Positions 7,162-20,794 of a stretch of 52,976 nucleotides of DNA are shown piece by piece. Every line of letters begins with the position of its first letter. Position 1 is the stretch's first letter. A program made the translations under genes and the position numbers. The notes under the pieces are model-generated. The model saw only the letters and a list, made by a program, of their open reading frames with translations. It was not told the DNA's origin and searched no databases. Origin of the DNA: a phage; the sequence record PZ049337.1; one strand, written 5' to 3'.

Positions 7162-7383
7162 TTATTTTAATGACGCCTGTAAAGACGCATTTAGTACACA
7201 ACGCTTCTCATATTCGCGATGGTTGTACGTGTTTGTCAGTGCTTCCGCAGCTTCTATTGACAAGATTGCAAAACCACCAAAGGCATTGCGAACTTCTTCA
7301 ATATCCATGTGCAGGACTTCACTTGTGATTTGGTTGGCTATTACGGCCTTATAAATCTCTTCGGCAATTTCAGCAGTTTTCAT
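7162..7383 (-). CDS. hypothetical protein (73 aa)
   Basis: Minus-strand ORF directly upstream of thyX; no motif recognised. Confidence 0.4.
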   Translation of the reverse strand: MKTAEIAEEIYKAVIANQITSEVLHMDIEEVRNAFGGFAILSIEAAEALTNTYNHREYEKRCVLNASLQASLK

Positions 7384-7794
7384 GTTTCTCTCCAGTTAAA
7401 ATTTAAGTAAGTGCCCTGACGTGGACTATTACGAACATTACAATACATTGGCTTAAATGATGTTTCCACTGCGGCCAAGACACTTATTAAATTTGATTCG
7501 AACCGCCCAAGTGAATCAGCCTTGTTTATGGGGACCATCGGGGAAAAGTATAAACCCGCTTAATGCTCGCATCATGTTTGAACATTAAGAACCCTTGACT
7601 TGCATATTTCATGTGAATAGGGGCATAGTCTATGTTTAATAGCTAACACCGGACAAGGAGGATTCCAGCTTAGAGCCTGAACTCAGTTCCCGACACATCA
7701 CAATCAGCGCAACTAAGCCGTATCGCTACGGTATGCCAGACGCTAACTTGAGCCTTTTGTACAGAGGCATAACTGTTTGGAAAGTGGCGGGCAC

Positions 7795-7863
7795 GTGACT
7801 GACATTTTGCACATTATGGAAGACGTTTTGCAACACATCTCCTAGTGACTGACATTTGCACTA
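7795..7863. repeat. direct repeat pair GTGACTGACATT(T)TGCAC
   Basis: Two near-identical 19-nt copies at 7795-7813 and 7845-7863 inside an ORF-free block. Confidence 0.5.
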
Positions 7864-7961
7864 GCCCATTGATTTGGTGGATTCGGTGAACCCTACGTTC
7901 ACAATTACACAGTCGGCCTCGGATGCTTCATCCCTATCCCATCGTGCAGGTTTCATTAACT

Positions 7962-8168
7962 CTACGAATCCATTGATTCTTTGTCAGGTTCTGACAGCAA
8001 ATTGCGGAGGAATGTATCCTCAGCGTTATAAAGAAATGCGTAGTAGAGTTGTTTAGCCTTGTTCCGGCTACATCCAAGAACTTGCATAATTTCTACATAC
8101 TGATACTGACGCACTCTATTATTAATGATTGCGTTACGAATGATTGCACGAATGCTAATTTTGTCCAT
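7962..8168 (-). CDS. hypothetical small protein, possible helix-turn-helix regulator
   Basis: 68 aa, basic; segment VRQYQYVEIMQVLGCSRNKAKQLYYAF resembles an HTH; flanked by ORF-free sequence. Confidence 0.3.
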   Translation of the reverse strand: MDKISIRAIIRNAIINNRVRQYQYVEIMQVLGCSRNKAKQLYYAFLYNAEDTFLRNLLSEPDKESMDS

Positions 8169-8594
8169 AGAAGACTACCTTATGTGATTGAGGTTGCGGC
8201 CTTTACGCGGCCAACGTGCCATTAATGCTGGCAAGACAGAGCTAACGTTCTCAAGCACTTTTGTCTAGGTCTGTTCCCGGCCACTGTTCTAGGAAGTGAC
8301 TACCTGAACTTTCTCGCGTTCAATACGAGGCAGCAATTTCAATTGTTATGCCCAGAGCAACTTGCAGGTTTGTTTGAGTTGGAGTCCTGCTTCCAAACGC
8401 ATGGAATTACACCACCAATACTACGAAGTAGCTAGAGTCTCGTTATTTAAAGTCGCGCACTCCCTCGACTGTGATATACGTGTGTTTAAAGTCCCGTACC
8501 GGACTGCCAAATGAAATGCGATGGCGAGCATTTGTTTGGCTGTCGTCACCTTGGTCAGTCTTTTACACCACCAACTAGCTAGGCCATGTTCAAC

Positions 8595-8804
8595 TCACTG
8601 TCGGGTAAGTTGAGAACACTTTTGTGCCCACGTTTCGTTGTGGACTAAAATCTGTGTTTTGGTTTCGCGTGATAAGATTTTAACTTCTGCAACATCCAAA
8701 TAGATTGGTTGTGCAATTAAGCAATAATCACTTACGAACCCACTTTGAGAGCAACTCACTATCGACATTGCTATCAGAACTGCTAGACACTTCTTTCTGA
8801 ACAT
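8595..8804 (-). CDS. outer-membrane lipoprotein, o-spanin (Rz1)-like
   Basis: Lipoprotein signal MFRKKCLAVLIAMSIVS|C with lipobox IVSC; start embedded out of frame in the 3' end of ORF 8728..8964. Confidence 0.45.
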   Translation of the reverse strand: MFRKKCLAVLIAMSIVSCSQSGFVSDYCLIAQPIYLDVAEVKILSRETKTQILVHNETWAQKCSQLTRQ

Positions 8805-8964
8805 GCGATTTAATCTCGATAGATTCTTTTAATGAATCCAGTTGCTTCTCTTTGGCTTCCTGACGCTCCTCGGCTTTGCCTGAGCTTTTGCCTTTGAGGA
8901 ACACTGCAATGAGAATGCCCAATGCAGTCAAGACGCCAAGAAATATTGACTTAAGCTGTTGCAT
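8728..8964 (-). CDS. inner-membrane spanin (Rz)-like protein
   Basis: 78 aa; N-terminal transmembrane helix IFLGVLTALGILIAVFL followed by charged coiled-coil-like segment; overlaps the lipoprotein ORF. Confidence 0.45.
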   Translation of the reverse strand: MQQLKSIFLGVLTALGILIAVFLKGKSSGKAEERQEAKEKQLDSLKESIEIKSHVQKEVSSSSDSNVDSELLSKWVRK

Positions 8965-9113: not shown

Positions 9114-9140
9114 GAGGACTCCATGTTATTGTTGAAAGTG

Positions 9141-9235
9141 GGTGGACGAGGTTGGATTCGAACCAACGACACATCTGTCGAACAGATTGCTCTACCTGAC
9201 TAAGCTCTGGAGCAGACCTTCTGAGCTACTCGTCC
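9141..9235 (-). tRNA. tRNA-like gene with expanded D-arm; possible tRNA-Arg(UCG), isotype very uncertain
   Basis: Minus-strand read GGACGAG-TA-GCTCAG...GGTAGAGC...ATCTGTTCGACAGAT...GTTGG-TTCGAAT-CCAAC-CTCGTCC-A: perfect 7-bp acceptor stem, canonical T-arm, classic D-arm halves, but about 22 extra nt inside the D-loop; CCA not encoded. Confidence 0.4.
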
Positions 9236-10393
9236 AAAATTGGGTGGGTTTTGGTAACGCAGGTTTTCCCGAACTGCGAGGCTTGTAGAATCTGTGAGTC
9301 ATCTACTGTGTTTTGACATAACGTGGGATTGATGGTCCCGACTCACTTCATCTCAGGTACAAGGCACTACTTTGCGAGTGCAAGCAGGTGTTGAACCCAA
9401 GTACCAACAGGCAACCTGATTTAATCTACCTTTGTAGATACCATCGGTTATGAGCAGTTTATTTCCATGCTCAGGGCAACTCACTTTAGGGTGAATTAGG
9501 TTACGCAGTGCAGCTTCGAAGTCGCTGCCACAGGTTTGAGATTCCTGTGTGGAGGGAAATCCAGAGGAGCACTTCCCCAAGGAGTTACGTTTCAAATTGG
9601 CATAGCTTCTCACACTAAGCCAATTGAAGACATTCCAGTGTGCTCGTCCGTCCTCTAGAAATATCCAACTGCATAATTAAGTTTGTACTCTGTCACATCT
9701 CCACGCGCACTGGAAGACTTAAGCCTGCATTGCATCGCAGAATACAAATTAATTATTGCTCCGATTTATTAATCACATCTCGAAGCCACAATGCGCCAAA
9801 TTTGGTTACATGGGATTGGAAGACCACGGAGAGAACTTAAATTTAATTAAGCTGCAACTCGCATTTCAGAATCATTTGCATTTATTTTAAATGAATAAAA
9901 CAGTCGCAATAACTTCAGGCAGTTTAGACCCGTCGTAAGACTCAGAAAACTACTTCAATATGGACTCTGGCATTCAACCAGACTCGACTACTTTTCAAGG
10001 CACTACCCTCTACTTTTTCATCACCCGTACTGGATATACTTTCACTGGTGCCCTTCCGCAAAGATTTCTTAAAGCGTTTCCAGGATGTTTCGCGGTAGTG
10101 AATCGCTACTACTTCCAGGGTCTCCACCAATACTTTCTAGTGAGCACGTCCTTCCAGCTAATTGTCTTCTCTTATCGGAGAAGGGTTCGTCCATTGCACA
10201 TCCATATTGAAATAACTTCAATGAACACTCTTGTCTGGGCCATGAGCTTGGGCATCGGCCTACCTCCCAACTCTAATCACAAGAATGCTCATTGAAGCCC
10301 ACTCACTCTGGAATGGGTTCAAGGCAGCACCGGAAAACTTCCAGTGCATGCCAGATCGATTTAGCTTAGTCTCTCAAGTTTGCCATCGGCAAC

Positions 10394-10732: not shown

Positions 10733-10810
10733 TTGTATATACCTTATATTGAATAGTTTTTGCACGCCACGGTGACGCGACTTAGATAAAATTAAAGAGC
10801 CTTTCTCTTT

Positions 10811-10827
10811 CCACATCCAATTAATGT
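10811..10827 (-). promoter_or_regulatory. copy of recurring 17-nt motif (minus strand ACATTAATTGGATGTGG)
   Basis: About 80 nt upstream of ATG 10732. Confidence 0.35.
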
Positions 10828-10856
10828 GTCAGGACTGCTCTGATTTAACAAACAAC

Positions 10857-12140: not shown

Positions 12141-12783
12141 AGGAACTCTCCAATTTTCGATTCAGTGTTTGTGACTTCTCTCTTCTCATCTTTTGGCCTC
12201 ATGAAACAGGCCACAGGGTTGCGAAAATAGCCCTATTTTAGGACTATAGCCAACCGTTTGTGTCAATTCTGGATAACTGCATTGGTGAAGGGTTACTCTC
12301 GTTAGGGTGCGATACGCTAATCACATGAGTGTCGTCGCCTTGCGGCTCAGGCGTGTCACAAAGGCTTTGCAACCCTTCCCAATACATTCACCCAAATCCC
12401 AGCGTTGGCGTAGCTGGTGGCTTGGTTTTGTGCGGATTATGCCACTCTAAGCCCTGTTTGTCCGACTTCCTCGGAGCACCAGCGGCTTGTGGCACAAACC
12501 TATTTTCGAATGACTAACATAAGCATGAGGCACAACCCTCTAATTATTCAGCCCTAACAGCTTGCTTATTTAGTACCAATTCATCCCAATACATCGACCT
12601 ATAACAAGTGAATAGCGTTTCTGCGAAGAAGTATTCTGGCCCTTTGGCCTATGTTAAAAGATAAGTGTATTTGATGGAAACATTCCATCGAAAATAACTT
12701 TGTAGAATGAGTCGAACATTCTCACACGTCTAGCGGCCGCAACGGTCTACCGAGTTACAAAGTTATTATCTGATGTTGTTTCT

Positions 12784-12800
12784 TCAATTCCAACTAATGT
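12784..12800 (-). promoter_or_regulatory. copy of recurring 17-nt motif (minus strand ACATTAGTTGGAATTGA)
   Basis: In ORF-free region 12150-13010. Confidence 0.3.
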
Positions 12801-12864
12801 TTCAGAATTATTCCAATATTCCAAACAAAAAGAATAATAAGAATAAATTAAAATAAATGAAGAA

Positions 12865-16551: not shown

Positions 16552-16623
16552 GATTAAGATTCTCTTAAGTTAATTACAGTTTAAGTTTCAGTGACATTGC
16601 TAACCACGGAATAGCTTTGTCTC

Positions 16624-16640
16624 TCACATCCAACTAATGT
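16624..16640 (-). promoter_or_regulatory. copy of recurring 17-nt motif (minus strand ACATTAGTTGGATGTGA)
   Basis: 73 nt upstream of ATG 16551; identical 17-mer at 20704-20720. Confidence 0.4.
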
Positions 16641-16680
16641 TGAATTAATCAGGAACACTCAATGAATGCTCCTTGTTAAT

Positions 16681-20312: not shown

Positions 20313-20703
20313 TCAAAATCGGGGCGGGCTACGGGATTAGTTTCGCGGCTTTGCTCCGACTCTTCTCTTCTTTCGAATTCTGATTGAAAGAAAGAAGCAT
20401 GTCCAAAAGTTCCAATATTACCAAAGTTATCTCCCGGCTTGTGGGTGGGCCTTTATAATAGGAGATGTGGCTCAATTGTCGCTAATAGACATGCTATAGG
20501 TGAAGAACAGTTTCGAATAATATTCCTACTTCACACATGGTTGCTGGAACTTTGTCCGGCCAAAGACAGGGAGTTCAATGATTGCCACATCATTACAACA
20601 CTGTATGTTTAGTTGACATGCTGAAATGTTTCTAGAATGATTTCAACATGACATGCGGAAACCCACGAACAACGTGAGTAATACTTCTCCGTATTCTGTT
20701 ACT

Positions 20704-20720
20704 TCACATCCAACTAATGT
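20704..20720 (-). promoter_or_regulatory. copy of recurring 17-nt motif (identical to 16624-16640)
   Basis: Exact 17-mer TCACATCCAACTAATGT on plus strand. Confidence 0.35.
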
Positions 20721-20794
20721 TACAGATGGCTACAATATTGAAGCCAGCTCTAAGATTAATTGAAACAAGAAAAGGGAGCCGAAGCTCCCAAATA

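Follow-up and report, generated by a model that had tools for sequence, protein, structure and literature searches.

The window analysed here, a stretch of 52,976 nucleotides (PZ049337.1), is the whole genome of a phiEcoM-GJ1-like E. coli phage of the Chaseviridae, in which every gene lies on the minus strand. Positions 7384-8594 had been described in an earlier note as poor in ORFs, and closer analysis agrees: the sole ORF of at least 60 aa is that of 68 aa at 7962-8168(-), while the shorter ORFs that are present are not conserved among relatives (e.g. in the 52-aa ORF at 7380-7538(-) the frame is lost to a deletion of 44 nt in JL1, Bp7 and ST32 and to one of 1 nt in GJ1). The genes and predicted RNA features of the stretch and its borders are the following:

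7384..7743, minus strand: left-block multi-hairpin RNA, immediately 5' of the 73-aa gene (7162-7383)
7785..7868, minus strand: repeat module of 84 nt, UGGGC-UA-[R1 GUGCAAAUGUCAGUCAC]-[hairpin P2]-[R2 GUGCAAAAUGUCAGUCAC]-GU-GCCC-G-CCA
7795..7812, minus strand: R2, the 3' repeat copy on the RNA strand (the first copy of the earlier note), with one extra A
7818..7842, minus strand: P2, terminal hairpin located between the two repeats, GGAGAUG / CGUCUUC, two of its pairs being G-U
7845..7861, minus strand: R1, the 5' repeat copy on the RNA strand (the second copy of the earlier note)
7875..7971, minus strand: module X, a tRNA-like three-way-junction RNA with a 7-bp acceptor-like stem, two arms and 3' ACCA
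7962..8168, minus strand: gene of the 68-aa accessory protein, overlapping the 5' end of module X with its final codons and stop
8246..8308, minus strand: module 'd', UUCAGGU...CUUCCUAGAACAG...ACAAAAGUGCUUGAGAACG, containing the CACTTTTGT box
8329..8360, minus strand: UUGCUCUGGGCAUAA and a small hairpin (CAAUU GAA AAUUG)
8438..8470, minus strand: hairpin AGUCG-AGGGAGUGCG-CGACU, then UUAAAUAACGAGA
8537..8586, minus strand: module Y, UGGCC-UAGCUAG-[UUGGU GGUGUAAAAGACUG ACCAA]-GGUGACGAC-AGCCA, containing the CACCACCAA box
8595..8804, minus strand: o-spanin gene (Rz1-like lipoprotein), the right border of the region, overlapping the i-spanin gene (8728-8964)

Comparison with related phages reveals an ORF-free gap of about 1 kb, between the small gene on the thyX side and the spanins, at the same place in five genera; an annotation-free gap of 0.9-1.5 kb occupies this position in GJ1, flopper, ST32, SKA49, Bp7, 4HA13, Faunus, PM1, Aioli and Berlingot. 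The gap is made of modules that are present, absent or exchanged from genome to genome, and individual ones are dispensable. Between genera its conserved islands are 74-97% identical, as against 67-72% for thyX, and the adjoining small genes are not alignable. Indels in the gap are not multiples of three, which fits non-coding sequence, and recoded stops or hidden genes were ruled out, as there is no conserved ORF and the best-conserved parts carry indels of 44, 1 and 2 nt. HNH endonuclease genes are inserted in the gap of 2KOFFS and DE15, and that of PM1 and Berlingot contains real or marginal tRNAs. In other genera modules move between ORF-poor blocks: modules of the window's tRNA-adjacent block sit in the first gap of Loessnervirus genomes. 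Blastn detected no paralogy between the window's own two ORF-poor blocks, and a host origin of the gap sequence was discarded, with no match among 5,426 E. coli genomes.

Searches of the window against Rfam release 15 gave no match at or above the gathering threshold; at E values up to 5 the segment 7100-10500 gave chance-level matches only, and the relatives tRNA matches only. The folding energy of the whole block is no better than that of shuffled sequences (z -1.0 to +0.3) and gives no support to a single large, highly structured RNA; many small modules are favoured. Inside the gap there is no excess of sigma-70 promoters or terminators. Promoters of a phage RNA polymerase were likewise rejected for the gap: the four copies of the GJ1-type motif ACATTAGTTGGATGTG all lie outside it, and the nearest phage promoter-like motif upstream is at 10810-10829(-).

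The best supported of the small modules is module X, which follows the order GGAUUCG - UAGAGUUAAUGAAACC - middle arm - AUU - GUGAAC GUAGG GUUCAC - CGAAUCC - A - CCA, ranges in size from 78 to 101 nt and is missing from three Carltongylesvirus genomes. In one alignment (A5) 98.7% of the cells pair and 8 of the 18 pairs change on both sides, with a covariation score reached by 0 of 500 shuffles, a control that overstates significance because the aligned sequences are related. In another alignment (A7, 12 sequences) the cells pair in 96.7% and 11 of the 18 pairs change on both sides; pairing in slid controls is 23-41% in A7 and 19-43% overall. The acceptor-like stem GGAUUCG/CGAAUCC, followed by A or G and CCA, pairs in 100% of the cells, with both-side changes at positions 2 and 4, and the middle arm is capped by a UUCG tetraloop in Berlingot and by a GAAA tetraloop in EaPF9. 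Seventeen G-U cells would be A-C mismatches if the RNA were read from the plus strand, so the G-U pairs fit the minus strand only. At the ends of the module, the base at -1 is U in 16 of the 17 distinct flank contexts and C in the remaining one; all of them have G at +1 and ACCA or GCCA. A covariance model recovered members beyond its training set (L154, L156 and L157) with the fold kept.

Module X is not recognized as a tRNA: ARAGORN finds 0 genes in the window, and RF00005 has no match in 7384-8594 at E values up to 5. The loop features of tRNA, i.e. the T-loop consensus, the D-arm and a 7-nt anticodon loop, were not found in it. The 3'-arm loop is freely variable (GUAGG, UUCGC, UAAC, CUUACUAUAAA, AGCGUAA), the position of the D-arm is taken by a conserved single strand, UAGAGUUAA, and the loops of the middle arm are AAG, UUCG or GAAA. 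A simple descriptor (acceptor stem plus adjacent hairpin) showed no enrichment over shuffles, so that it is the comparative data that carry the tRNA-like assignment. Generic scans for an acceptor stem with NCCA or with an adjacent hairpin were abandoned as being of no statistical use, the background equalling the signal.

Next to module X lie the direct repeats, two copies of GTGACTGACATTT(T)GCAC, to which the earlier note had drawn attention. They are indeed spaced 50 nt start to start (GTGACTGACATTTTGCAC at 7795-7812 and GTGACTGACATTTGCAC at 7845-7861) and share an exact core of 13 nt; the expected number of exact 13-mer repeat pairs in 1.2 kb is about 0.011, and the 12-mer core has no other occurrence in the 53-kb window. 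Their conservation in related genomes is also borne out, as they are invariant across genera but for one loop base each in PP101 and EaPF9. These repeats form the long sides of a single RNA module, between a closing stem (P1) and the terminal hairpin P2. In six lineages the minimum-energy fold of this module is a rod of -23 to -25 kcal/mol; a cloverleaf-like alternative is 0.6-1.3 kcal/mol worse in the window and GJ1, and the folding z of the module alone is -1.45 in the window, -1.9 in PM1 and +0.26 in Berlingot. One pair of P1 has changed on both sides, from G-C to C-G, in Loessnervirus, a covariation support that amounts to a single lineage event, and at the position of P2 four unrelated sequences each form a hairpin (window, PM1, Berlingot, EaPF9). 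The repeat-to-repeat pairing is invariant and R1/R2 pairing hence receives no covariation support; the strict sequence conservation of the 17/18-nt repeats suggests that a protein or another RNA recognizes them sequence-specifically.

The repeat module has U at -1, G at +1 and 3' RCCA in 10 of 10 contexts. It is gained or lost as one unit, with borders at CCRCCA...AAUGG junctions: among 16 Carltongylesvirus genomes it is present in 8, missing in 6 and replaced by other sequence in 2, and it is conserved in Berlingot, EaPF9 and, at another intergenic site, in PM1 and PP101. A mini-CRISPR array was considered and dropped, given a 17-nt repeat in two copies with no likeness to host repeats. A scan of metagenomes with a degenerate form of the two-repeat pattern gave at least 120 loci, and these were unrelated.

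The 68-aa gene is a real accessory gene, found as an insertion in three of the 16 aligned Carltongylesvirus genomes (the window, PYps3T and JL1). Its product matches PHROG 9565 (unknown function, E 6e-26) and has homologues in E. coli podophages of about 77 kb and Klebsiella phages of 40 kb. The label "HTH-like" earlier given to this protein found no backing in Pfam, where no match exceeded the threshold and the best was RepA_N (E 0.09). The suggestion that the repeats are its operators fails, since the gene is absent from most genomes that carry them: the repeat module occurs without the gene in GJ1, Mangalitsa, SA91KD, Bp7, flopper, SKA49, PM1, PP101, Berlingot and EaPF9, the gene occurs without the repeats in JL1, and the two are found together only in the window and PYps3T (gene in 3/16, repeats in 8/16); moreover, the genome has only two such sites. 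The other suggestion made for the repeats, i.e. that they belong to the same structured-RNA landscape as the tRNA-adjacent block, fares better: the helices covary, the G-U pairs fit the minus strand only, and the modules are shared in Loessnervirus.

The left block comprises, in its 5' part on the minus strand, GCGUCUGGCAUA, hairpin H1 (7718-7731), UUAGUUGCGCUGAUUGUG, hairpin H2 (7649-7668) with the loop AUCCUCCUUG, and H3 (7630-7642); then follow the core CACAUGAAAUAUGCAAG..GGGUU (7590-7615), H4 (7559-7589) and H5 (7539-7558), and in the 3' part GAUGGUC-C-CCA-UAA (7526-7539) and H6 (7494-7518). This order of motifs and hairpins is common to Carltongylesvirus, Faunusvirus, Sabourvirus, Suwonvirus and Loessnervirus. 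H1, H2, H4, H5 and H6 differ in sequence with pairing kept in every genus; RNAalifold recovered H4 and H6, with 10 of 12 predicted pairs kept via changes on both sides. Matches to the 21-mer of the core are confined to viral contigs of Chaseviridae size, with none in a bacterial genome. The left block is an RNA separate from the other modules; it may be a structured leader of the operon of replication genes, or a stable RNA. A leader peptide (MKYARQG...) in the core was rejected, as the 21 nt do not vary even at third codon positions, a Shine-Dalgarno sequence is lacking, and the length of the ORF is unstable (8 to 29 codons). The block was also rejected as the 3' piece of a split tmRNA, the pairing fitting Loessnervirus only.

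To the right of the 68-aa gene, the recurring boxes pointed out in the earlier note were recovered in part. CACCACCAA does recur, at 8410 and 8566, with three further copies inside genes elsewhere; the box near 10128 exists there as CTCCACCAA, one mismatch from CACCACCAA and not identical to it; and CACTTTTGT is present at 8256 and again at 8617, the latter copy lying beyond the right block, inside the o-spanin gene. The boxes at 8256 and 8566 fall within small conserved units. Module 'd' is conserved in Aioli, EaPF9, Faunus and 4HA13. The unit at 8329-8360 resembles the left-block motif of CUGGCAUA plus H1; in Faunus and 4HA13 it has about 94-95% identity over 37-38 nt. The hairpin at 8438-8470, 92-97% identical over 36-39 nt in Erwinia phages, has its stem changed to GGUCG/CGACC in Faunus; a similar unit lies at 8482-8505, and the pair appears as a direct repeat (D14). 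The stem of module Y is ACGGU/ACCGU in 4HA13 and PYps3T, i.e. two pairs have changed on both sides.

These comparisons establish the conservation, modularity and strand of the stretch, its helices with compensatory changes and the absence of coding. We read it, with a probability of about 0.6 and on the strength of sequence comparison, as a cluster of non-coding structured RNA modules on the minus strand, comprising putative tRNA-like small RNAs of RNase P type. The modules would probably be part of a long right-to-left transcript that includes the spanin genes and an odd tRNA at 9139-9235. Module X and the repeat module carry the signals of RNase P and tRNA 3'-end processing, i.e. a terminal helix that begins with G, a U at -1 and a 3' RCCA encoded in the sequence, and are most likely excised as discrete small RNAs of about 85-100 nt. 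As candidate functions, such RNAs could act as decoys of, or competitors for, tRNA-binding factors, or could serve as punctuation of a polycistronic RNA.

A possible, considerably less probable explanation is that the modules have no function as free RNAs and act in cis, as a structured leader and as processing or stability signals that divide the early/lysis part of a long transcript from the mRNA of the replication genes. The left block would be the regulatory 5' UTR of the operon of the 73-aa gene, thyX and primase, and its conserved CCUCC loop could mask a ribosome-binding site. This agrees with the position of the left block, which reaches up to the start codon of the 73-aa gene and occurs in every genus, with the conserved anti-Shine-Dalgarno-like loop of H2 (CUCCUCA or AUCCUCCUUG) on a stem that changes in sequence, and with the RNase P-type features in a gap that has no promoter- or terminator-like excess and whose nearest phage promoter-like motif is the upstream one at 10810-10829(-). 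The modules would then be comparable to the tRNA-like t-elements of plant mitochondria (PMC1920247) or to the RNase III sites of T7. A kilobase of diverse, swappable modules, however, far exceeds what processing sites need, modules are lost without replacement in some genomes, and the 17-nt repeat is conserved in sequence, beyond structure. This explanation overlaps with the preferred one, because processing belongs to both.

It is improbable that the gap is a decaying tRNA cluster, a graveyard of old tRNA genes and gene fragments under neutral drift, functionless today and reshuffled by recombination and homing endonucleases. Several features would suit this explanation: tRNA fragments with good T-arms (e.g. 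ACUGG UUCGAUU CCAGU in a 76-nt insert of flopper and PO103), the marginal tRNA matches in relatives, the odd tRNA at 9139-9235, the heavy presence/absence polymorphism, the insertions of HNH genes and, in Loessnervirus, a fragment similar to the 3' end of the o-spanin gene. Yet neutral drift would not keep helices via compensatory changes in five genera, nor stretches of 17-40 nt at 92-100% identity where thyX is at about 70%, and phage genomes of 53 kb rarely retain 2-3 kb of junk. Least of all do we favour a DNA-level element, with the repeats as origin iterons or protein operators and the hairpins incidental: a pair of identical 17-bp sites at a distance of 50 bp, whose sequence is kept across genera and which lie just upstream of replication genes, and a 68-aa protein weakly (sub-threshold) similar to a winged-helix replication initiator domain would suit it, but there are only two repeat copies and none elsewhere in the genome, the losses and replacements of the module in close relatives (6 and 2 of 16) and its other intergenic site in PM1 would be odd for an origin, the repeats and the 68-aa gene do not co-occur, promoter-like sites are not in excess, and the closing stem and inter-repeat hairpin are kept despite sequence change, with G-U pairs, which is relevant to RNA only.

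Returning to the preferred reading of a cluster of small RNA modules, the stretch can be likened, by analogy, to the accessory-rich RNA region around the tRNA genes of T4. There segB, an endonuclease gene, and the stable RNAs rnaC and rnaD lie among the tRNA genes, and the T-arm of rnaC adjoins its 3' end, yet the molecule is not a tRNA. The function of rnaC and rnaD has long been obscure. As in T4, the Chaseviridae modules are non-tRNA RNAs in a phage region of tRNA and homing-endonuclease genes: in both, small phage RNAs are encoded among tRNA genes in the same orientation, near a homing endonuclease and small ORFs. Homology to the T4 species 1/2 RNAs was not detected, as blastn-short between T4 70.8-71.3 kb and the three ORF-poor blocks gave only matches of 9-11 nt; the longest, of 11 nt, is T-loop-like. 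Module X lacks the T-loop consensus. The Chaseviridae modules differ further in being swappable cassettes with RCCA...AAUGG junctions, and the repeat module has no T4 counterpart.

With canonical phage tRNAs module X shares the 7-bp acceptor stem, the discriminator base, the encoded CCA, a hairpin abutting the 3' acceptor strand and its size (78-101 nt), and it differs from them in lacking the D-arm, the T-loop consensus, the 7-nt anticodon loop and any call by ARAGORN or Rfam. Non-decoding tRNA-shaped elements inside longer transcripts are described for plant mitochondrial t-elements (PMC1920247) and MALAT1 mascRNA (PMC8457004), which are recognized by tRNA end-processing enzymes; those are single eukaryotic or organellar elements at mRNA ends, whereas here a phage encodes an array of diverse modules with putative processing. 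The repeat module in turn resembles, in sequence features only, the non-tRNA substrates of bacterial RNase P (the 4.5S RNA precursor, the tmRNA precursor and model hairpins with 3' RCCA), being a rod hairpin with G at +1, U at -1 and 3' RCCA, although its closing stem gives way to an internal loop after only 4-5 bp. What the RCCA motif and residue N-1 contribute in such substrates is described in PMC12710915.

A tmRNA-like tag frame, ANDSEMRVAA, lies at 9847-9879 in block B (9756-10313). The variants of the tag are ANDSEMRVAA, ANDNEMRAVA and ANDSEMRMVA, and among the lineages with ANDSEMRVAA all nucleotide differences within it are synonymous, as expected from selection at the protein level. 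The frame has no start codon, begins with an Ala resume codon, has its stop codon in a hairpin and is followed by a pseudoknot, features that it shares with tmRNA; the frame upstream of the tag is not conserved, and GJ1 has an in-frame stop five codons upstream. Block B differs from tmRNA in that default ARAGORN makes no call and Rfam scores it at 15-21 bits, below gathering. Relaxed ARAGORN reports a permuted tmRNA with this tag, the position of its tRNA-like domain being inconsistent between genera, and no convincing tRNA-like domain was found for the element, also by a pairing search. Phage RNAs that imitate just the tRNA-like domain have been described, such as that of mycobacteriophage DS6A (PMC4131195). 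The modules of 7384-8594 show no similarity to tmRNA.

A broader, speculative and on balance doubtful proposal is that the two to three ORF-poor blocks of Cleopatravirinae (7384-8594, 9114-10393 and 12141-12747) form an RNA arsenal against the tRNA and ribosome-rescue machinery of the host. It would consist of the tmRNA-like tag template ANDSEMRVAA and of swappable mimics of the acceptor stem and RCCA end: module X, the repeat module and also the left block, in which a T-arm-like hairpin is followed by ...GUC-C-CCA. The mimics may be decoys or competitors for factors that inspect the 3' end of tRNA (e.g. RNase P, the CCA enzyme, SmpB, EF-Tu) or for defence toxins such as the toxSAS enzymes, which pyrophosphorylate the CCA end (10.1101/2024.07.05.602228). 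Alternatively, a split tmRNA may receive its missing tRNA-like part from one of the mimics.

Chaseviridae, a widely isolated group, serve as candidates for phage therapy against E. coli, Erwinia and Pectobacterium, yet in their genomes 4-5% of the sequence is annotated either as empty or as small "hypothetical proteins" that are spurious. That this space contains conserved structured RNAs, among them a multi-hairpin RNA present throughout the family and a well-supported group of tRNA-like RNAs whose ends are of RNase P type, corrects the annotation and supplies concrete candidate RNA genes. If these RNAs do act on tRNA-handling or ribosome-rescue factors, they would represent a new class of phage counter-measures. 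Small RNA modules appear to be swapped like cassettes between phage genera, even with T4-like phages: the element of module Y is also present in the tRNA region of the T4-like Serratia phage PS2.

The window is a nearly complete genome of a phiEcoM-GJ1-like myovirus (Chaseviridae, Cleopatravirinae, Carltongylesvirus) with every long ORF on the minus strand, and a 3.5-kb query around the gap at 7384-8594 is matched at 88-94% identity by some 40 Carltongylesvirus phages of E. coli and Yersinia. The gap is bounded by the following genes:

7162-7383, gene for a 73-aa protein (GJ1 gp32), followed by thyX and the primase/helicase gene, on one side
8595-8964, overlapping spanin genes, on the other side

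The scarcity of ORFs described in the earlier note is genuine; the sole ORF of at least 60 aa in the interval is 7962-8168 (minus strand). An annotation-free gap of 1 kb is common to GJ1, flopper, ST32, SKA49, PO103 and Bp7, and the same gap occurs in other genera, namely in 4HA13 (Sabourvirus), Faunus, PM1 and PP101 (Suwonvirus), and Aioli and Berlingot (Loessnervirus). Small ORFs annotated within it vary between genomes and can be on one strand or the other. Across genera, identity is 67-72% for thyX and reaches 74-97% in islands within the gap, and the small flanking genes cannot be aligned. As a feature, the gap is conserved in the subfamily.

An alignment of 16 genomes reveals a mosaic, in which blocks are present, absent or swapped as whole units. 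Within Carltongylesvirus the length of the gap ranges from 808 to 1,711 nt, its flanking genes being 91-100% identical, and its modules are dispensable. An HNH endonuclease gene sits in the gap of 2KOFFS and DE15, and several genomes have a 44-nt deletion that disrupts a 52-aa ORF overlapping the next start codon. The 68-aa gene is genuine: it gives a match to PHROG 9565, and homologues exist in E. coli podophages of 77 kb and in T7-like phages of Klebsiella. Of the 16 aligned genomes, the window, PYps3T and JL1 alone have its block. This gene, whose stop codon falls within the 5' end of module X (see below), is a cassette unrelated to the direct repeats, and the suggestion that these are operators for its product is not supported. 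The folding energy of whole blocks is unremarkable.

The two repeat copies themselves (R2, 7795-7812, and R1, 7845-7861) stand as reported; chance alone would give about 0.011 13-mer pairs of this kind in 1.2 kb, and the core has no further occurrence in the rest of the genome. Both lie within one 84-nt block, 7785-7868, with borders at short junction repeats (CCRCCA ... AAUGG). The block is missing from TH53, JL1, DE15, PO103, MLP1 and PYps16N and is replaced by other sequence in 2KOFFS and ST32; PM1 and PP101 carry it in another intergenic region, after the spanins, and it is also present in Berlingot-type Erwinia phages and EaPF9. None was found in the E. coli genomes searched. Read on the minus strand, it has the form UGGGC-UA-R1-hairpin-R2-GU-GCCC-(G/A)-CCA, in which the 17-mers R1 and R2 are nearly invariant, and the stretch between them has a different sequence in four lineages and forms a hairpin each time. 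In the closing stem, a G-C pair is changed to C-G in Loessnervirus and one pair is gained. The repeat ends are self-complementary, and the minimum-energy fold, at -23 to -25 kcal/mol across six lineages, is a rod with R1 paired antiparallel to R2. Compared with this rod, a cloverleaf-like fold is less favourable by 0.6 to 8.3 kcal/mol; the R1-R2 pairs show no variation, and therefore covariation cannot choose between these folds.

A second structured module is the following:

7971 to 7875, minus strand, 97 nt, module X, directly upstream of the repeat module on the RNA strand

Its terminal stem has 7 bp; inside it come a single-stranded stretch that is conserved (UAGAGUUAA..AAACC), the middle arm, AUU and a hairpin of 6 bp directly against the stem's 3' strand, after which the module ends in A-CCA. 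Thirteen of the 16 Carltongylesvirus genomes have module X, as do Faunus, Berlingot and EaPF9. When the sequences are aligned with MAFFT, pairing holds in 98.7% of cells and both-sided changes affect 8 of the 18 pairs, values reached by none of 500 shuffles; slid controls pair at 19-43%. A covariance model built on that alignment found new members outside its training set (Y2 and three other viral contigs); with these added, 96.7% of cells pair and both-sided changes affect 11 of 18 pairs, figures that are generous given the relatedness of the sequences and the fitting of the second alignment to the model. Entire stems are nevertheless exchanged (GCUGG/CCAGC or GUUGG/CCAAC in place of GUGAAC/GUUCAC), the middle arm ends in a UUCG or GAAA tetraloop in some lineages, and 17 G-U cells are compatible with the minus strand only.

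In every genome both the repeat module and module X are preceded by ...AAU or ...UAU (with the exception of one C), begin with G, and end in ACCA or GCCA. Bacterial RNase P is known to recognize its substrates by U at -1, G at +1 and a 3' RCCA. The RCCA motif and residue N-1 are among the subjects treated in PMC12710915. Since the modules carry these three features, we infer that they would be cut like tRNAs out of a long transcript. They would act like tRNA-shaped processing elements, yet they are not recognized as tRNAs: ARAGORN did not call module X, the Rfam tRNA model gave no call either, and Rfam has no matching family for the modules. The gap most closely resembles the tRNA region of T4, where rnaC and rnaD (stable RNAs that are not tRNAs) and the endonuclease gene segB are found; no sequence homology to it was detected in the gap modules.

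Promoter-like or terminator-like sequences show no excess within the gap. According to the ICTV profile (PMC12842549), promoters of Chaseviridae have so far not been identified. The window contains four copies of ACATTAGTTGGATGTG, annotated as "putative phage promoter" in the GJ1 record (10810-10829, 12783-12802, 16623-16642 and 20703-20722, all on the minus strand; about 0.01 expected by chance), of which the one nearest the gap, 10810-10829, lies upstream.

The left block (7384-7743) has an order of elements common to all genera, all on the minus strand:

1, GCGYCUGGCAUA, then hairpin H1
2, hairpin H2 (7649-7668 in the window), loop CUCCUCA or CCUCCUU
3, hairpin H3
4, 35-nt core (AUGUUCCUAAUCACAUGAAAUAUGCAAGGCAGGGUU)
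5, long variable hairpin H4
6, small hairpin H5 (CRGG...CCYG)
7, ...GUC(U)-C-CCA-UAA
8, hairpin H6, loop CUUGGNCGRUU

RNAalifold with eight sequences recovered H4 and H6, with 10 of 12 pairs kept via both-sided changes. The core 21-mer was found in seven viral contigs of Chaseviridae size and nowhere else; genomes of 185,579 bacterial species contain no copy. The conserved ATG of the core heads ORFs of 8 to 29 codons, in which third positions do not vary, and therefore the constraint is on the RNA. The pyrimidine loop of H2 is conserved (AUCCUCCUUG in the window, CUCCUCA elsewhere) and resembles the anti-Shine-Dalgarno end of 16S rRNA, while the stem sequence varies between genera; the loop might pair with GGAG of the downstream gene. 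The segment 7630-7700, covering the H2-H3 part, differs from all 15 other aligned Carltongylesvirus genomes, which are near-identical there; this suggests a recombinant segment.

The right block (8169-8594) contains more conserved units: module Y (8537-8586, minus), with the stem UUGGU/ACCAA changed to ACGGU/ACCGU in 4HA13 and PYps3T; two units of a hairpin with UUUAAA, one of which shares 92-97% of its sequence with Erwinia phages over 36-39 nt and has a compensated stem in Faunus; CUGGGCAUAA with a hairpin; and module d (8246-8308, minus). The boxes of the earlier note fall into two of these, CACCACCAA into module Y and CACTTTTGT into module d. CACCACCAA is found at 8410 and 8566, and its copy near 10128 carries a mismatch; CACTTTTGT does recur, its second copy lying within the o-spanin gene. 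The 40-nt hairpin of module Y (8541-8580) recurs in T4-like Serratia phages at about 90% identity; in PS2 (L029, 1501-1539) its place is the tRNA region, where a tRNA-Gly gene and gene 30.3 flank it. This recurrence suggests that small RNA modules are exchanged between unrelated phage families. The C-terminus (LTRQ) of the o-spanin in the window is encoded by GAAACUUACCCGACAA (~8598-8613), which stands free in mid-gap in Loessnervirus (L031, ~2900-2925, with homologues in L030 and L033) and may be a rearrangement relic or an RNA motif overlapping the gene end. Beside the position of module X, flopper (L022) and PO103 (L025) have a 76-nt insert in which the T-arm is perfect (ACUGG UUCGAUU CCAGU) and the 3' strand of an acceptor is present; the insert lacks a 5' half and is therefore a tRNA fragment. 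Aioli and EaPF9 contain a 47-nt mini tRNA-like element in which a 7-bp acceptor is combined with a small hairpin and GGG UUCGAUU CCC.

In block B, the neighbouring block (9756-10313), a frame devoid of a start codon, GCA AAU GAU UCU GAA AUG CGA GUU GCA GCU UAA (9879 to 9847, minus), lies within the conserved island 9756-9960 and encodes ANDSEMRVAA; the E. coli tmRNA tag is ANDENYALAA. The same peptide is encoded in GJ1, Mangalitsa, PYps3T, 4HA13 and Aioli, and all nucleotide differences among these lineages are synonymous. Variants are ANDNEMRAVA (Berlingot), ANDNEMRAAA (one viral contig) and ANDSEMRMVA (Faunus), the tags of Berlingot, UViG_31418 and Faunus differing at two or three residues. 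The sequence upstream is unconserved, with an in-frame stop 5 codons upstream in GJ1. A covarying hairpin contains the stop codon of the tag; next come a further hairpin (9809-9828) and a pseudoknot (9758-9796), and a CGACGGG motif at 9926-9945 resembles the 5' part of E. coli tmRNA. The frame and its surroundings have the anatomy of a putative tmRNA tag template. The search for its tRNA-like domain gave no convincing candidate, scores being under the ARAGORN and Rfam thresholds. A 2014 survey of 543 phage genomes found ssrA solely in mycobacteriophages and Bacillus phage G (PMC4131195).

An odd tRNA-like gene at 9139-9235 (minus) has a good acceptor stem and T-arm, about 20 extra nt resembling a duplicated D-arm, and the anticodon loop UUCGACA. 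ARAGORN missed it in the window, and its Rfam tRNA score is 27.9 bits against a threshold of 29; its homologues are called tRNA-Leu(CAG) in GJ1, ST32, DE15 and SKA49 and tRNA-Ser(GCT) in SA91KD by ARAGORN, and the GJ1 record has "tRNA-Arg, may contain an intron". A third ORF-poor gap, 12141-12747 (minus), contains a predicted 96-nt RNA (12283-12378; z -2.95) with a 10-bp terminal stem, a 3' ACCA and the GGCGACGAC motif found also in module Y, and a strong predicted hairpin (12420-12502; z -4.4). Modules of the tRNA-adjacent block 9114-10393 are found in the thyX-side gap of Loessnervirus genomes (L030, L031, L033), and thus modules move between the two gaps, e.g. 9246-9285 (AAGCCUCGCAGUU...CUGCGUUA) and 9451-9477 (CCCUGAGCAUGGAAAUAAACUGCUCA).
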